A stretch of DNA of 64,000 bases, from the NCBI GenBank assembly GCA_000004695.1, contig CM000151.3, positions 2,560,001 to 2,624,000 of the forward strand, given 5' to 3'. This DNA comes from Dictyostelium discoideum (lineage: Eukaryota). The translations under genes were made by a program, and so were the position numbers. Shown here in pieces: positions 18,304-61,918 of the stretch (positions are counted from its first letter, which is position 1; every line of letters begins with the position of its first letter). The notes below the pieces were generated by a model, which did not search any database, was not told where the DNA came from, and saw only the letters and a program-made list of their open reading frames with translations.

Positions 18304-19413
18304 ATGACACTAACCAAAAAGTTAGCGGTTTCACAATTCATAACAACATCAAAGAATGATTATTATCATTTATTCTTAAATGGATCATTCTTTTTATATT
18401 ATATAATAATAGCTTTATTATTTTGTTTTTTCATTATTTTTAAAAGATATAGATCACCAAAAACAATAATTATTTCATTATGTTGTATTGTTAAAGTTTT
18501 CTTTTCATCATTATTTTTAACAGATTTTTTAAATTTTATTGATAATCAAAAATATAATTATTCAAAAAATTCATTTTATTTCAGTAAATTATTAAAATCA
18601 TTATCAACAATATCATCGATAACAACATCATCAACATTAAATTCATTTCACTTTTACTTATTTATATCATTTATAACATTTGCATTATATTTTATAATAT
18701 CATATAAACTATATGGTATAGTTTATAAGAAATCTGAAAACGAAATTAATAATGGTGGAATTATAAATGAAATTAGAAATAAATTATTAAATACAATTTT
18801 CAAAGGTAGAAGAGTTGCAATCGTTGAATTGATAGCATTGGTTTGGATATTTAGTTTACTATTTATGATTTTACAATCATCATTATTTGAAACATCAAAT
18901 ATTGAATCAGGAAAGAGTAAAAAAGTTTTAATATTTTCATTATTATCTTTAATTTCATTTGGTTATTTATTATTAAATATTAGAACTAGATCAAAGAATT
19001 TACAAATTTCAAGAAATTCATTTTTAGATAATCATTCAACAACAACAACAGCAATTAAAAATAAAGTAACATTTGAATTGTTTAATTTAGAGATTTCAAA
19101 AGATATTGTTATAACAAAATTAAATGATTCATTCGCACAATTCATTTATTATTCAACAATGTATTATTTTTCAATTACATTGGTTTATTATAGTATAACA
19201 ATATCAAGTGGATTTTGGAAATTAGCTTTAGATGGAGTATCTCCAACTTTTTCACTTGCAATTTCAACTTATCAAGCAATTGCAAATGTTTTACCAATAA
19301 TTGATATCATTTTCACAATAACTTTTATTATACATTCTATCACTTTAATAAATTATTCAAATCAAATTTATGAAATCGATAAAGTAATAATAAATAAAAA
19401 TAAATCAAAATAA
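18304..19413 (+). CDS. Predicted multi-pass integral membrane protein (369 aa), function unknown.
   Basis: ATG at 18304 and TAA at 19411-19413. There are at least 7 hydrophobic 20-25 residue segments (LYYIIIALLFCFFIIF, IISLCCIVKVFFSSLFL, FHFYLFISFITFALYFIISY, VELIALVWIFSLLFMIL and others) separated by short polar loops. No recognisable family motif. Confidence 0.5.
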   Translation: MTLTKKLAVSQFITTSKNDYYHLFLNGSFFLYYIIIALLFCFFIIFKRYRSPKTIIISLCCIVKVFFSSLFLTDFLNFIDNQKYNYSKNSFYFSKLLKSLSTISSITTSSTLNSFHFYLFISFITFALYFIISYKLYGIVYKKSENEINNGGIINEIRNKLLNTIFKGRRVAIVELIALVWIFSLLFMILQSSLFETSNIESGKSKKVLIFSLLSLISFGYLLLNIRTRSKNLQISRNSFLDNHSTTTTAIKNKVTFELFNLEISKDIVITKLNDSFAQFIYYSTMYYFSITLVYYSITISSGFWKLALDGVSPTFSLAISTYQAIANVLPIIDIIFTITFIIHSITLINYSNQIYEIDKVIINKNKSK

Positions 19414-20389
19414 AACAAAATAATAATTATATTTCAAAAAATAAATAAATAAATAAATAATTATTTATTGATTGTACTTTATTTTTAGAAATTGGTTTAT
19501 TTTTAATTAATTAATTAATTAATTTAGAAATTTGTTCATTTTTATTTTTATCAATTGATATTTGTGATAGTGTGTGTGTGTGATTTATTATTTTTGTGTG
19601 TGTTTACTTGTTTTTTTTTTCATTTTTATTTTTATTTTTTTTATTTTTATTTTTTTTTTTTTTGGGAGTTGTTTTATTGTTTTATTTGTTTTCTTTGTTA
19701 TTTTGGATATATTGAAAATATCAAATTTGATTTAATATTGCAACAACACAACACCCACTTACAATTTTAGGGGATTTATTGCCATATTTAGTAAATTAAA
19801 AAATTTATATAAACATATTCTAATTTTTATTAAAGTAAAAAATTATATTTAAGACCACACCCTATTTCTAACATATCAGTTACCTAAATAGCACCAACAA
19901 TGATTACAACAAAATACCTGAAATTATAAAAATGGATTTTCAATTTTTAGTTTATTTTTTTTTTTTTTTTTGAAGGTGTAAAAAAGGTGGGTTAGTTCCC
20001 CAAATGTACACACAAAAAAAAAAAAAAATAAATAATTAATAAATAATAAAAAAAAAAATTGAAAATAAAAAATATATTTATAGCAATTATAACAATGCTC
20101 CCACACAGCAACAATTAAATTGTTTATCTTTTTTTTATTTTATTTTTTTTTTTTTAAATTTTTTTCTTCAACAAATCTTGATATAATCAAATTATTATTA
20201 TTAATAATAAAAATTATTTATTTATTATTTATTTTTAATTATTGTTTTTTTTTATTATTACTGTTTTTATTTTTTTTATTTTTAATAATAGAAATAATAA
20301 TAATTTTCAAAATTATTTATTATTAAGCAATTGATCAAAATAAATAAAAGATTAATTAATTAAATAAAAATTTCACATATACAAAAAAA

Positions 20390-20443
20390 TAAATTAAAAA
20401 TAAATTAAAAATAAATTAAAAATAAATTAAAAATAAATTAAAA
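20390..20443. repeat. Tandem 11-mer (TAAATTAAAAA) x5, immediately 5' of the GTPase gene.
   Basis: Read directly at 20390-20443. It ends about 20 nt before the ATG at 20465. Confidence 0.8.
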
Positions 20444-20464
20444 ATAAAAAAAAAAAAAAATAAA

Positions 20465-20661
20465 ATGTGCAAAAAATTGAATATTTGTTTTTTAGGAGAT
20501 AAATGTGTTGGAAAGACAAGCACAATACACACAATGGTAAATTCTTTTTTTGATGACGAAAAATATAGCCCCACAATAGAATCAAAATTTACAAAACTAT
20601 TTTCATATAAAGTTTTATATAATTTAAATATATATGATACAGGTAAATATTTTTTTGTTTG

Positions 20662-20693
<32 letters not shown>

Positions 20694-21232
20694 CAATATT
20701 AATATTGATATTTTTTTTATTATTATTTTTTTATTATTAAAAAAAAGCCGGATCAATTGAGATGGAAAGTATATTATTAGATACAATTAAACAATGTGAT
20801 TGTTTTGTAATAATGTATTCAATATCTGATAGAGATTCATATGATTCAATTTATAAATATAGAGATTTAATTAAAGAAGCATTCCCATTTAAAGATAATA
20901 TACCCATTATATTATGTGCCAATAAAAACGATTTAAAATGGGAATCACAATTTTCACATAATGAAATTATTGATATTTCAAAATCATTTGGAAAACCATC
21001 AACAATTTCTTCGGCTAAATGTTTAAATTCTGTTATAAACACTTTCAAATTATTATTAGATATTGTTCAAAGAAATGAAAAACAAATTAAAAAAGATATA
21101 AAAAAGTATGAAAAAAATTTAAAAAGGAATGATAAATTAGAATTTGATTTAGAAAAAAAGAAATCAATTTTTAAACATGTTTTATTACAAATTAAATATC
21201 ATAAATTAGTTTTAAATAATTTAATTAATTAA
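20465..21232 (+). CDS. Divergent Ras-superfamily small GTPase (about 220 aa); join(20465..20642,20748..21232).
   Basis: Core motifs are present: P-loop GDKCVGKTS, switch I YSPTIES, DTAG, NKND in ILCANKNDL, and SAK. The DTAG motif is split by a phase-1 intron, with a GTAAAT donor at 20643 and an AG acceptor at 20746-20747. Without splicing the ORF stops. The catalytic Gln is replaced by Ser (DTAGS). There is a Lys-rich coiled C-terminal extension and no CAAX cysteine. Confidence 0.75.
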
Positions 21233-23104: not shown

Positions 23105-23404
23105 CAAATTTTTAAACAATAATACAAATTTTTATATATATTTAGAATTATTTAATTTGTAAAAATATTCAATCTAACACACCAGTATATATGCATTTTT
23201 GCACATATAAACAAAACAGTAACAAGAACCCCCACTTTAAAATAATAATGTGTTAGAAAAAATAAATAAAAATAAAAAAAAAAATAAATTTAAAAAAAAA
23301 AAAAAAAAAAACATAAAAATAATAAATAAAATGGGTGTTGTTATTTATGATTCATCCTAAACGGTATTTAAATTATTTAATGCAGAGAAATTAGTATATA
23401 AAAA

Positions 23405-28480: not shown

Positions 28481-30731
28481 ATTATTATTATTATTGTTAT
28501 TGTTGTTGTTTTTTATAATTTTAAATTTGTTACCACCAATTATTAAATTATCGTTTTTAATACTATTATTAATATTGTTATTGTTATTGCTTGTATGTTG
28601 CTTAAATAATGTATGTATACTATTGCTGTTGTTATTACTTTGATTCTTTAACACTACAATTTTTTTTTTTAAAAGGTTTTTAATAGTTTTTTTAATTAAT
28701 ATTACTGCCACTCTCTTTAAAAAAATAAAAAAAAATAAGAATTTTTAAACGATATTAATCTATTTAAAAACTATATTTTTTTTTTTTTTTTTTTTTTTTG
28801 TTTATTTTTTGTTTTTTTGTTTTTTTTTTTTTTTGTTGTCCTAAATGTATTTAATAGTGATAATAATTATTTATGTATAATATTTAAAGATTATATATAT
28901 TTAATTATTATTATTATTATTATTATTATTTTAATTATTTAATTATTTAATTTTTTTTTAATTATTATTTATTTATTAAAAAGGGTATTTTTGAATGGGT
29001 GAAAGTGGTATGTATAGTGTGTGTGTGTGAGTGGGTGAGTGGGTAAACAAAACAAATAAAAAAAATGGGATTAAAAAAAAAAAAAATTTAAAAAAAATTA
29101 AAAAAAAAAAATTTTTTATATTAAAAAAAAATAAAAATAAAAAAAAAAAACTTAATTAAAAAAAAAAAAAAAAAACAAAAAACAAAAAAAATAATAAAAA
29201 AATAAAAAAAAAATAAAAAAAATAAAATAAAGAATTGTTTATTCACTTGGAAATATTCTTAGAATGTTTAAATAAAAAAAATAATTAATGATTAACAAAT
29301 AAATAAACTTGATTAAAGATTATTTTCTTTTAATATTTTTTTTTTTTTTTTTTATTTTCCAATTTACCCAAAATGCATACATGCATGTGTGAATAAAATA
29401 AAATAATTTAAACAAAATATACTGTAATACAAAAGTAGTAAATATGATTTGAGTTTACTTTTTTTTTTTTTTTTACTGTTATTTCTTTTTTTTTTTGATA
29501 ATGAAAATTTGTATAATTAATAAATTTCTTTTTTAATAATTATTATTTTAAAAAAATTAAAATTATTTATTTTTTTAATTTATATTAATTTTTAATTAAT
29601 TATTTTCTATTTTTATTTGATTATTATTATTTTTTTTAATTTTAACTTAATTTAATATTATATTATCCTTTTTTAATTTAATTATAAAATAATTATTTAT
29701 TTTTACTATTTATTTTTTTTATATTTTTTAAATAATATACTGGAATGGAAAAAATAAATTAAAAATACAAATTGAAAACCAAAAAAAAAAAAAATCAATG
29801 TATAAAAAAAAAAAAAAAAACAATAAATTAAATTAATAATAATGCTCCCACCCAGAGACAAAAAAAAAAAAAAAAAATTAAAAAAAAAAAAAATTAAAAA
29901 TAAATAATGGCGATTGTGATTTGATTGCCTAATTCTATCAAAAAATTCTAAAATTAACTTTATCTCCAAGAATTTATTTTTAAAACACTATTCTAATAAT
30001 AATAATTTTTTTATTTTTTTTTATTATTTATTTTTTTTTTAATTCAATCGCACATTAAGTGAAATCTTATGATTTTGATTTTTTACTATGTACAGCAAAA
30101 TAACAACAACTATGATGTTTTAATTTATCTTCGTACAACCTTCTGAGATTTTAAAGATTTAAAAATTATAAAAATAAATAAAAAAATAAAAAATAATAAA
30201 ACTTATTAGTTTTATTATTATTATTTTTTTTTTTTTTTTTTTTTTTTATTATTTTTTAAGAATTTATATAAATTTATATAGTTTTATTAATTTTTTTTTT
30301 TTTTTTTTGTTATTTTCCATATTTTTCCTTTAGAATTCCATCTATATTATATAGATATATAAATATAAATGAAGAACTCTAAAGGTTTAATTATGGTAAA
30401 TAGCAGAATAAAAAAATAAAATAAAATAAAAAAACTAAAATTATAAAAAAAATAAAAAATAATTATTAATAATGTCTTACTAAATATTTTAACAAAAAAT
30501 ATACAATTGTTTTTTTTATTTTTTTATTAATTTATTTTTTTTTATTTAATTTTTCCTTTTTTTTTTTTTTTTTTTTATTTTTCAAAAAATTTTCAAAAAA
30601 ATAAAAAAAAAATAAAAAAAAAATAAAAAAAAAATAAAAAAAATATTTTTTTTTTTTATTTTTATTTTTTAAAAAAACTATTAAAAATTTTTTTTTTTTT
30701 TTATTGTACAATTATCAAATAATTAATAATA

Positions 30732-31358
30732 ATGGCAGGTGGAAAGAGAGGTGGTAAAGTAGCACCAACCAAAACATTTGGTCGTGATTATGAAAGAAGT
30801 AAAGGAAAAATTAGTCGTGATCGTGTTTATGATGAAGAGGATATTATAAAGAGAAATCAAGAAAGCGATAGTGATGATAATTCTGGTTCTGAATCAGGTT
30901 CAGAAAATGAAACAAAAAATAATAATAATAAAAGTAAATTAGGTAGTGATTCAAGTGATGATGAACCAGTCATTGTCTCTAGAAATCCAAATGCCAAAAA
31001 ACCAGCAGCTAAAAGACCACCAACCACTAAAAAACAACAAGAGAGCGATAGTGAAGACGATTCAGATAAAGAAAGTGATAGTGAAGACGAAATCGCTAAT
31101 CCAAATAGAATGAAACAAGTTACTAAAAAACTAAGTGAAATCAATGTAAACGCTAAAGTTGAACTTTCACGTAGAGAAAAAGAAGAACTCGCAAGACAAG
31201 CCGCAACTCAAAGACAAAACGAAAAACAACAAAAAAGTGATCTCGAAAGATTACAAGTCATAAGAAAACAAAGAGAAGAAGCAGCAAAACGTAAAGAAGA
31301 AGAGAAAAAAGCAAATGAAGAAAAAATGGCCGAACGTAGAAGATTAGGTTTAGCTTAA
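30732..31358 (+). CDS. PDAP1/HASPP28-like 28 kDa heat- and acid-stable phosphoprotein homolog (208 aa).
   Basis: MAGGKRGGKVAPTKTFGRDYE, then acidic Ser clusters SDSDDNSGSESGSE and SDSEDDSDKESDSEDE that look like CK2 sites. Then NPNRMKQ..LSRREKEELARQ and a Lys/Glu-rich coiled tail ending RRRLGLA*. TAA at 31356-31358. Confidence 0.7.
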   Translation: MAGGKRGGKVAPTKTFGRDYERSKGKISRDRVYDEEDIIKRNQESDSDDNSGSESGSENETKNNNNKSKLGSDSSDDEPVIVSRNPNAKKPAAKRPPTTKKQQESDSEDDSDKESDSEDEIANPNRMKQVTKKLSEINVNAKVELSRREKEELARQAATQRQNEKQQKSDLERLQVIRKQREEAAKRKEEEKKANEEKMAERRRLGLA

Positions 31359-61233: not shown

Positions 61234-61918
61234 CGCTCTTTTGTCGAAAAATTAAATAAAAAAATATAAAAAAATTATAAAAAAAAAAAAATAAACAAAT
61301 AAAAAAAAAAAAAAATTACTATATTTATCTAAACACACTTTATTGAATGAATCTCAAAAAAATGCCCACCTCAAAGTACATAAATTTTAAAAATAATATC
61401 AATGATTGTGTTTCAATGAATAATCATATCTGTTTTAAAAATGATATTTTTCAAAAAAAAAAAAAAAAAACAAAAAAAAAAAAATAATAATAATAATCAT
61501 TTTTATTTTATTAATTATTGCAGTGCATTAATTTATTTATATTTTTATTATTTTTTAAACTAAAACAATAAAATAAAAAAAATAAATAAAAATAGAAAAA
61601 TAATTAAAATGAAAATAAATAAAGAATTAAAACCGACAAAAAAAAAAAAAAAAAAAACCTAAAAATATCTGAAAAATCTTTTTTATTTTCTCCTACTGGC
61701 CAATAATATTTTTTTTTTTTTTTTTTTAAATTTCATTTTTTTGTCATTTTTTTTTGATTGTTTTTGTTTGTCTTTGATTTTATTATTTTATTTTTTTTTT
61801 TTTTTTTTTGTCTTATGTGCTTTTTTTATTCATATTATATAAATTACATTTATGTATAATCACACACACACTAAAAATTAATAAATAAAAACATCAAAAA
61901 AAAAAAAAAAAAAAAAAA

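Follow-up and report, generated by a model that had tools for sequence, protein, structure and literature searches.

Two similar GC patches in A+T-rich promoter spacers of Dictyostelium discoideum are probably unrelated members of a common class

Gene context of the two patches

The window analyzed here, a stretch of 64,000 nt from the AX4 genome of Dictyostelium discoideum, contains two short GC-containing patches in spacers of 14–15% local G+C (∼85% A+T), compared with 21.8% G+C for the window overall. Site 1 lies between a 369-aa membrane-protein ORF and a small GTPase gene, 371 nt 5' of the start codon of the GTPase gene (20465). Site 2 lies in a 2-kb divergent spacer between a protein tyrosine phosphatase (PTP) gene on the minus strand and the PP28/PDAP1 gene on the plus strand, 873–891 nt upstream of the PDAP1/PP28 ATG (30732), ∼1.1 kb upstream of the long PTP ORF, or ∼460 nt upstream of the place, near 29383, where automatic gene models predict a short PTP first exon. 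A first-pass annotation had placed both copies several hundred bp upstream of gene starts, which is roughly right, and its sequences and positions for them (20094–20112 and 29841–29859) were correct. The features are as follows.

18304–19413, plus strand: 369-aa membrane-protein ORF
20094–20112, plus strand: site 1, AATGCTCCCACACAGCAAC; its minus strand reads GTTGCTGTGTGGGAGCATT and includes TGTGTGG, an instance of (T/G)G(T/G)G(T/G)G(T/G), or KGKGKGK
20113–20165, plus strand: T-rich tract (T8, T13, T7) between site 1 and the next conserved block, of varying length between taxa
20166–20195, plus strand: conserved block CTTCAACAAATCTTGATATAATCAAATTAT, putative 5' end of the GTPase mRNA
20465–20642 and 20748–21232, plus strand: exons 1 and 2 of the small GTPase gene, joined as DTAG
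29841–29859, plus strand: site 2, AATGCTCCCACCCAGAGAC; its minus strand reads GTCTCTGGGTGGGAGCATT and includes TGGGTGG (KGKGKGK)
29860–29906, minus strand: A18-TT-A14 (poly-T on the minus strand), abutting site 2
29907–29990: block B (ATGGCGATTGTGATTTGATTGCCTAATTCTATC..., ATGGCGATTGTGATTTGATTGCCTAATTCTATCAAAAAATTCTAAAATTAACTTTATCTCC...), conserved and non-coding, adjoining site 2 and used as an internal control for constraint
30732–31358, plus strand: PP28/PDAP1 gene

The exact 11-mer AATGCTCCCAC occurs twice in the entire 64 kb when both strands are searched, starting at 20094 and 29841, both on the plus strand. Across the 19-mers the two sites are identical at 16 of 19 positions, leaving three mismatches where four to five had been counted in the first pass. 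A longer match on the opposite strand, also reported then, is present but requires a 1-nt gap and adds A/T bases only. Beyond the core, an ungapped alignment of the flanks is at background level.

The window's small GTPase shares a sequence cluster with AX4 XP_644529/Q556U0, to which it is identical. That AX4 protein, identical to the product of 20465–21232, carries two GenBank accessions, EAL70603 and EAL70767, which is consistent with the window lying within the duplicated segment of AX4 chromosome 2. For the D. firmibasis orthologue, the automatic gene model puts the first exon elsewhere, far upstream. Directly 5' of where GTPase translation starts, ATAAATTAAAA is repeated five times in tandem (20381–20445); at the equivalent position D. 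dimigraforme and D. firmibasis have no such copies. Right after site 1 comes a perfect palindrome rich in A/T, AACAATT-A-AATTGTT (20110–20124); it is kept in the D. discoideum complex with its centre base changed and is degenerate in D. citrinum.

In Dictyostelium, sense-strand poly-T tracts end ∼2 bp before the transcription start and poly-A tracts begin just past transcript ends (Chang et al. 2012, PMC3371697). Both sites adjoin long homopolymer tracts of the sort that mark transcription starts in such poly-T-demarcated Pol II core promoters (PMC3371697), site 1 upstream of a sense poly-T and site 2 directly after a minus-strand poly-T. By this rule, the T tract ending at 20165 would put the GTPase start near 20167 on the plus strand, with site 1 at about −73 to −55, and the minus-strand poly-T ending at site 2 would put a start on the PTP side at ∼29858, with site 2 at about +1 to +18. 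The local layout differs accordingly: T tracts follow site 1, whereas A tracts follow site 2. Because the sites would hold different places in the poly-T promoter layout (∼−65 versus ∼+1 relative to the predicted starts), they do not appear to be one positional element.

For the block at 20166–20195, past the T tract, mean pairwise identity is 1.00 in the four closest taxa and 0.93 when six are compared. At site 2, the taxa with block B, leaving aside the more diverged D. firmibasis, agree best at the junction poly-T|GTCT(CT)GGG. The gap to the next conserved block varies among taxa from 46 to 83 nt for site 1 and from 57 to 75 nt for site 2.

Variation at the orthologous loci

Orthologous loci were located through the PP28 and GTPase proteins, and the surrounding DNA was then compared in nine other assemblies: three further D. 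discoideum, two cf. discoideum, two D. citrinum, D. dimigraforme, and D. firmibasis. The two sites read as follows.

AX4 (window): site 1 AATGCTCCCACACAGCAAC; site 2 AATGCTCCCACCCAGAGAC
L001: site 1 outside the locus covered; site 2 as in AX4
FIW (ACTFIW): site 1 as in AX4, with AATGCTCCCAC intact; site 2 AATGCCCCCACCCAAAGAC, its 11-mer reading AATGCCCCCAC
FIY: site 1 as in AX4; site 2 AATGCCACCCACCCAGAGAC, with an indel
D. discoideum ACTFIR: site 1 AACGCTCCCAC; site 2 AATGCCCCCACCCAAAGAC, its 11-mer reading AATGCCCCCAC
cf. discoideum FIZ: site 1 AATGCTACCAC; site 2 AATACCCCCAGAGAC, with an indel
D. citrinum (two assemblies): site 1 AATGCCTCACACAAC (AATGCCTCACAC; CTCACAC); site 2 A(A/T)ACCCCGCCCAGAC
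D. dimigraforme: site 1 AATGCTTCACACACAA (AATGCTTCACAC; TTCACAC); site 2 missing along with block B
D. firmibasis: site 1 CAGTGACAAACACAA (CAGTGACAAACAC; ACAAACAC); site 2 AATCACTCACACTTAGAAAC

Only AX4-type sequence (the window and L001) carries the whole 11-mer at both sites, and both sites are polymorphic within nominal D. discoideum. D. citrinum, D. dimigraforme, and D. firmibasis are without the CCC core of site 1. In AX4 the two sites have an 11-nt word in common; in all other taxa the longest such word is 4–5 nt, and identical positions drop from 16/19 to 10/19–20. In FIW, FIY, and ACTFIR the two sites still match at 9–10 of 11 positions or differ by a 1-nt indel, so that the similarity predates AX4; this earlier likeness could reflect a young, weakly selected site. 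Site 2 evolves by both indels and substitutions, with +1 and −4 nt indels among the relatives, and looks like a C run prone to slippage (CCCA versus CCCACCCA).

Compared with its surroundings, site 1 is no better conserved and site 2 far worse. Among the four closest taxa, mean pairwise identity of the 11-mer is 0.95 at site 1, against 1.00 for its flank. At site 2 it is 0.40 (0.32 when D. citrinum is included), against 0.84 for the upstream flank, 0.98 for block B (0.97 with D. citrinum), and 0.94 for block C (30040–30150), making site 2 the least conserved stretch of its own neighbourhood. The conservation invoked in the first pass therefore does not hold: the 11-mer is polymorphic within D. 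discoideum and lost in sister species, with nearly invariant blocks next to it. Several patches of the same class are kept out to D. firmibasis, namely GAACCCCCAC at 23231, GACCACACCC at 19866, and the GT/G cluster at 28997–29045; the pair GAAGGTGTAAAAAAGGTG (19973–19990) is kept to D. firmibasis in the multiple alignment, though not in pairwise blastn. Conservation at the two sites would thus have been detectable.

The conserved blocks have features of their own. Block A (19735–19935), ∼200 nt of non-coding DNA upstream of the GTPase gene, is conserved across all seven taxa, D. firmibasis among them; in that species its upstream neighbour is a Sec7 gene and not the 369-aa ORF. Within it AAATAGCACCAACAATGATT is nearly invariant, ACACCCAC and GACCACACCC form CA-rich patches, and indels are not multiples of three. 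It has no Rfam match and no conserved structure, and may represent either an enhancer module or a transcript missing from the annotation. Block B is 97–98% identical across the D. discoideum complex and D. citrinum, recognisable in D. firmibasis, and deleted in D. dimigraforme together with site 2; an upstream ORF there (ATGGCG...) was rejected because its ATG is ATA in D. citrinum.

Conservation of block C extends to all seven taxa, at a mean identity of 0.88. It contains box C/D-like pieces (TGATGT, CTGA, and terminal AAATC/GATTT) as well as TACAGCAA, which matches 8/11 of the class I RNA motif and has no stem. A box C/D snoRNA was rejected here: in D. dimigraforme and D. firmibasis the D box CTGA reads TTGA, the C box departs from the canonical form, and Rfam returned nothing. 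RNAalifold gave just −3.6 and −5.7 kcal/mol for blocks A and C, and pair changes on both sides were limited to two pairs of a weak 3-bp helix in block C.

Patch class and the likelihood of coincidence

We defined spacers as positions with <17% G+C in 300-nt windows, which total 18 kb and contain 44 GC islands. With bases shuffled within islands, the probability that any two of the 44 share a GC-rich 11-mer was 0.06. Two further nulls made the AX4 resemblance look more unusual and count against coincidence: a composition-based one, shuffling islands with their flanks, gave P = 0.003 for any island pair with at least 16/19 matches, at least nine of them on G/C, and a class-aware one, with the CCCAC core fixed over 14 spacer CCCAC sites, gave P ∼0.0009 for the flank agreement, although both thresholds are the observed values, set afterwards and uncorrected for other possible cores. 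Whether the match is unexpected, as the first pass described it, depends on the null. On its own, the AX4 sequence hints at a match beyond chance and does not establish one.

Both sites belong to a patch class that is strongly over-represented in the window's spacers. Against dinucleotide shuffles, CCCAC occurs 14 times where 1.0 is expected and KGKGKGK 19 times where 1.7 is expected, so that the CCCAC/GTGGG class is enriched ∼11–14-fold. Membership of both sites in this narrow class makes a chance resemblance easier than a plain composition model allows.

We consider it most likely, at roughly 65%, that the sites are labile promoter GC patches which belong to a common class and are otherwise unrelated, and that their extended identity arose by coincidence in the AX4 lineage. 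Variation of the 11-mer between strains and close species is what makes coincidence the most likely account, in preference to a shared regulatory or small-RNA element. The observation made in the first pass is real; its interpretation is largely wrong.

Each site would then be a C-rich patch (G/GT-rich when read from the opposite strand), independent of the other, labile in evolution, and of a type over-represented in A+T-rich Dictyostelium spacers. Site 1 would lie ∼55–75 bp upstream of the predicted GTPase start, and site 2 at the predicted minus-strand start on the PTP side. Both resemble half-sites of G-box/CA-rich elements, and each may contribute weakly to its own promoter. The resemblance of site 2 to site 1 appears to have been built up in small, separate steps, in which AATA became AATGC, a C became T, and CCCA was duplicated by slippage.

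A real motif would mean a cis-element or small-RNA promoter new to Dictyostelium; the evidence points against this. Where spacers are ∼85% A+T, the GC patches isolated within them are drawn from a narrow, enriched class (CCCAC/GTGGG) and change by slippage, so two spacers can show a striking short match and yet have no function in common. The D. discoideum-group assemblies that have newly become available decide such cases quickly by comparison.

Regulatory and small-RNA alternatives

The alternative that survives best, though we regard it as rather unlikely, is that AATGCYCCCAC is a cis-regulatory site of recent, lineage-specific origin, which two promoters 10 kb apart gained by convergence within the D. 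discoideum complex. Its appeal lies in the flank agreement, improbable under simple nulls, in the 9–11 of 11 matches between the sites across four D. discoideum-complex assemblies, and in the strong enrichment of spacer GC patches as a presumably functional class. These points are set against polymorphism at both sites within nominal D. discoideum, the standing of site 2 as the least conserved stretch nearby, the differing placement of the sites relative to poly-T/poly-A tracts and predicted starts, and the finding of no more intergenic copies in the window plus ∼140 kb of related loci of the same region. That one sequence-specific factor co-regulates the small GTPase gene and the PTP or PDAP1 gene through such a site is rather unlikely. 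Somewhat less credible is the specific version in which a recent D. discoideum-complex factor site was gained twice independently and couples the divergent small GTPase with the PTP/PDAP1 pair.

A protein-binding promoter element had also been proposed in the first pass. The part that stands is that the spacers around both sites contain promoters and that both are of the enriched CCCAC/GTGGG class; there is no sign that one specific 19–25-nt element is common to the two. Each site may thus be an ordinary promoter patch that binds protein. Both are like the G-box/CA-rich element (CAE) in being short G/GT-rich (C/CA-rich) islands in very A+T-rich promoter DNA, and unlike it in being single half-sites that are not kept in sister species.

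The G-box/CAE is recognised by the Dictyostelium G-box binding factor (GBF), whose sites are reportedly described in the original GBF papers as closely spaced pairs. The GBF response element has the consensus (T/G)G(T/G)G(T/G)G(T/G), and described GBF sites occur as closely spaced pairs (PMC2257962). It is unlikely that both patches are working GBF half-sites that confer post-aggregative induction on the neighbouring genes, even though TGTGTGG (20107) and TGGGTGG (29854) on the minus strand agree with the published pattern (PMC2257962), the pattern is 11-fold enriched in spacers, and conserved G-box-like elements lie close by (19973–19995 and 28997–29045). The pattern is very permissive, and neither site has a second half-site close by: the nearest other KGKGKGK is ∼110 bp from site 1 (the 19973–19995 pair) and ∼830 bp from site 2 (29018). 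D. citrinum has lost the pattern at both sites and D. firmibasis at site 1, and the AATGCT flank common to both sites is no part of the GBF element and is left unexplained by it. As lone half-sites, the patches are not established members of the GBF element family.

At 19973–20007, GAAGGTGTAAAAAAGGTGGGT comprises two G-box-like half-sites with an A run between them, followed by AGTTCCCCAAAT and a poly-A tract. This pair is conserved across the D. discoideum group, with the GTGTAAAAA(A/T)GGTG part also in D. firmibasis, and is a stronger candidate than the reported motif for a GBF-type site with a function. A second cluster, (GT)n plus GAGTGGGTGAGTGGGT at 28997–29045, lies ∼300 nt upstream of the long PTP ORF and is probably a G-box region of the PTP promoter. 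Its G/GT-rich character is kept in all taxa; the microsatellite varies in length and is strongly expanded in FIY.

Dictyostelium upstream sequence elements (DUSEs) lie ∼60 nt (60–63) upstream of snRNA and class I RNA genes. Their consensus is [AT]CCCA[AT]AA (PMC3188802; also a D. giganteum preprint), a CCC triplet characterises the DUSE of Group 4 dictyostelids (PMC7919456), and class I RNAs carry the 11-nt motif CCTTACAGCAA (PMC3188802). We judge it very improbable that the sites are degenerate DUSEs driving small ncRNA genes that start ∼60 nt downstream, at the blocks of 20166 and 29907, or that they form the core of an RNA family like class I. The idea draws on the CCCA core at both sites, which in AX4 lies 57–66 nt upstream of the next conserved block, and on CCACACAGCAA in site 1, which matches CCTTACAGCAA at 9 of 11 positions. 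This likeness to the class I motif, pointed out in the first pass, is genuine for site 1; site 2 reaches just 6/11, and the other class I features are missing.

As DUSEs, the sites miss two to three of the eight consensus positions (site 1 TCCCACAC 6/8; site 2 TCCCACCC 5/8 or ACCCAGAG 6/8). The CCC expected in Group 4 is not kept, being lost at site 1 in D. citrinum, D. dimigraforme, and D. firmibasis, variable at site 2, and missing with site 2 in D. dimigraforme, and the spacing to the next block drifts over the ranges already given. The DUSE consensus is not enriched in window spacers (1 observed versus 4.3 expected from dinucleotide shuffles). For a small ncRNA starting ∼60–63 nt downstream, no Rfam family was found within ∼1 kb (E ≤ 5), the downstream blocks have no conserved structure, as judged by inspection in the case of block B, and a hairpin at the start of block B is, by inspection, broken in D. 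firmibasis.

In a class I RNA the 11-nt motif adjoins a 5' stem whose complementary 3' terminal strand is 40–70 nt away, a run of T follows the gene, and a DUSE or TGTG box lies upstream. As a class I RNA core, site 1 has no terminal stem: 20113–20165 is nearly pure A/T, with no complement to the bases before the motif. No G/C-containing gene body follows it, no Rfam covariance model matches, and there is neither a CCCA for an upstream DUSE in 20013–20093 nor a TGTG box. Searched with Rfam at gathering thresholds, the whole window gave no matches; at E ≤ 5, 19400–20500 and 28700–30750 gave low-complexity artefacts only (XIST_intron on a T/A run; mir-3688, E 0.6), and a tRNA scan found none. 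The first-pass suggestion of a small-RNA gene family core thus fails for want of an Rfam match, a class I terminal stem, an upstream DUSE, and agreement with the DUSE consensus.

A dispersed repeat or mobile-element remnant was rejected after blastn of 600 nt per site returned nothing but A/T alignments of low complexity, which were not anchored on the motif. In one frame the two sites both translate to N-A-P-T-Q and differ by a synonymous ACA/ACC change; a coding micro-exon was rejected on account of close flanking stops (in frame after 13 codons at site 2) and the frame-breaking +1/−4 nt indels in relatives.

Elsewhere in the window, AAAAATGCCCACCTCAAAG at 61360–61376 is a third spacer patch like the motif (AATGC-CCCACC, with one base fewer). 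A series of GC-rich 11-mers (for example CAAATCGCTGG, GTGATGCCGCA, CCAAAATGCGG) recurs in the same order at 45348–45425 and 50633–50710, ∼5.3 kb apart, which indicates a local duplication or a paralogous gene pair.
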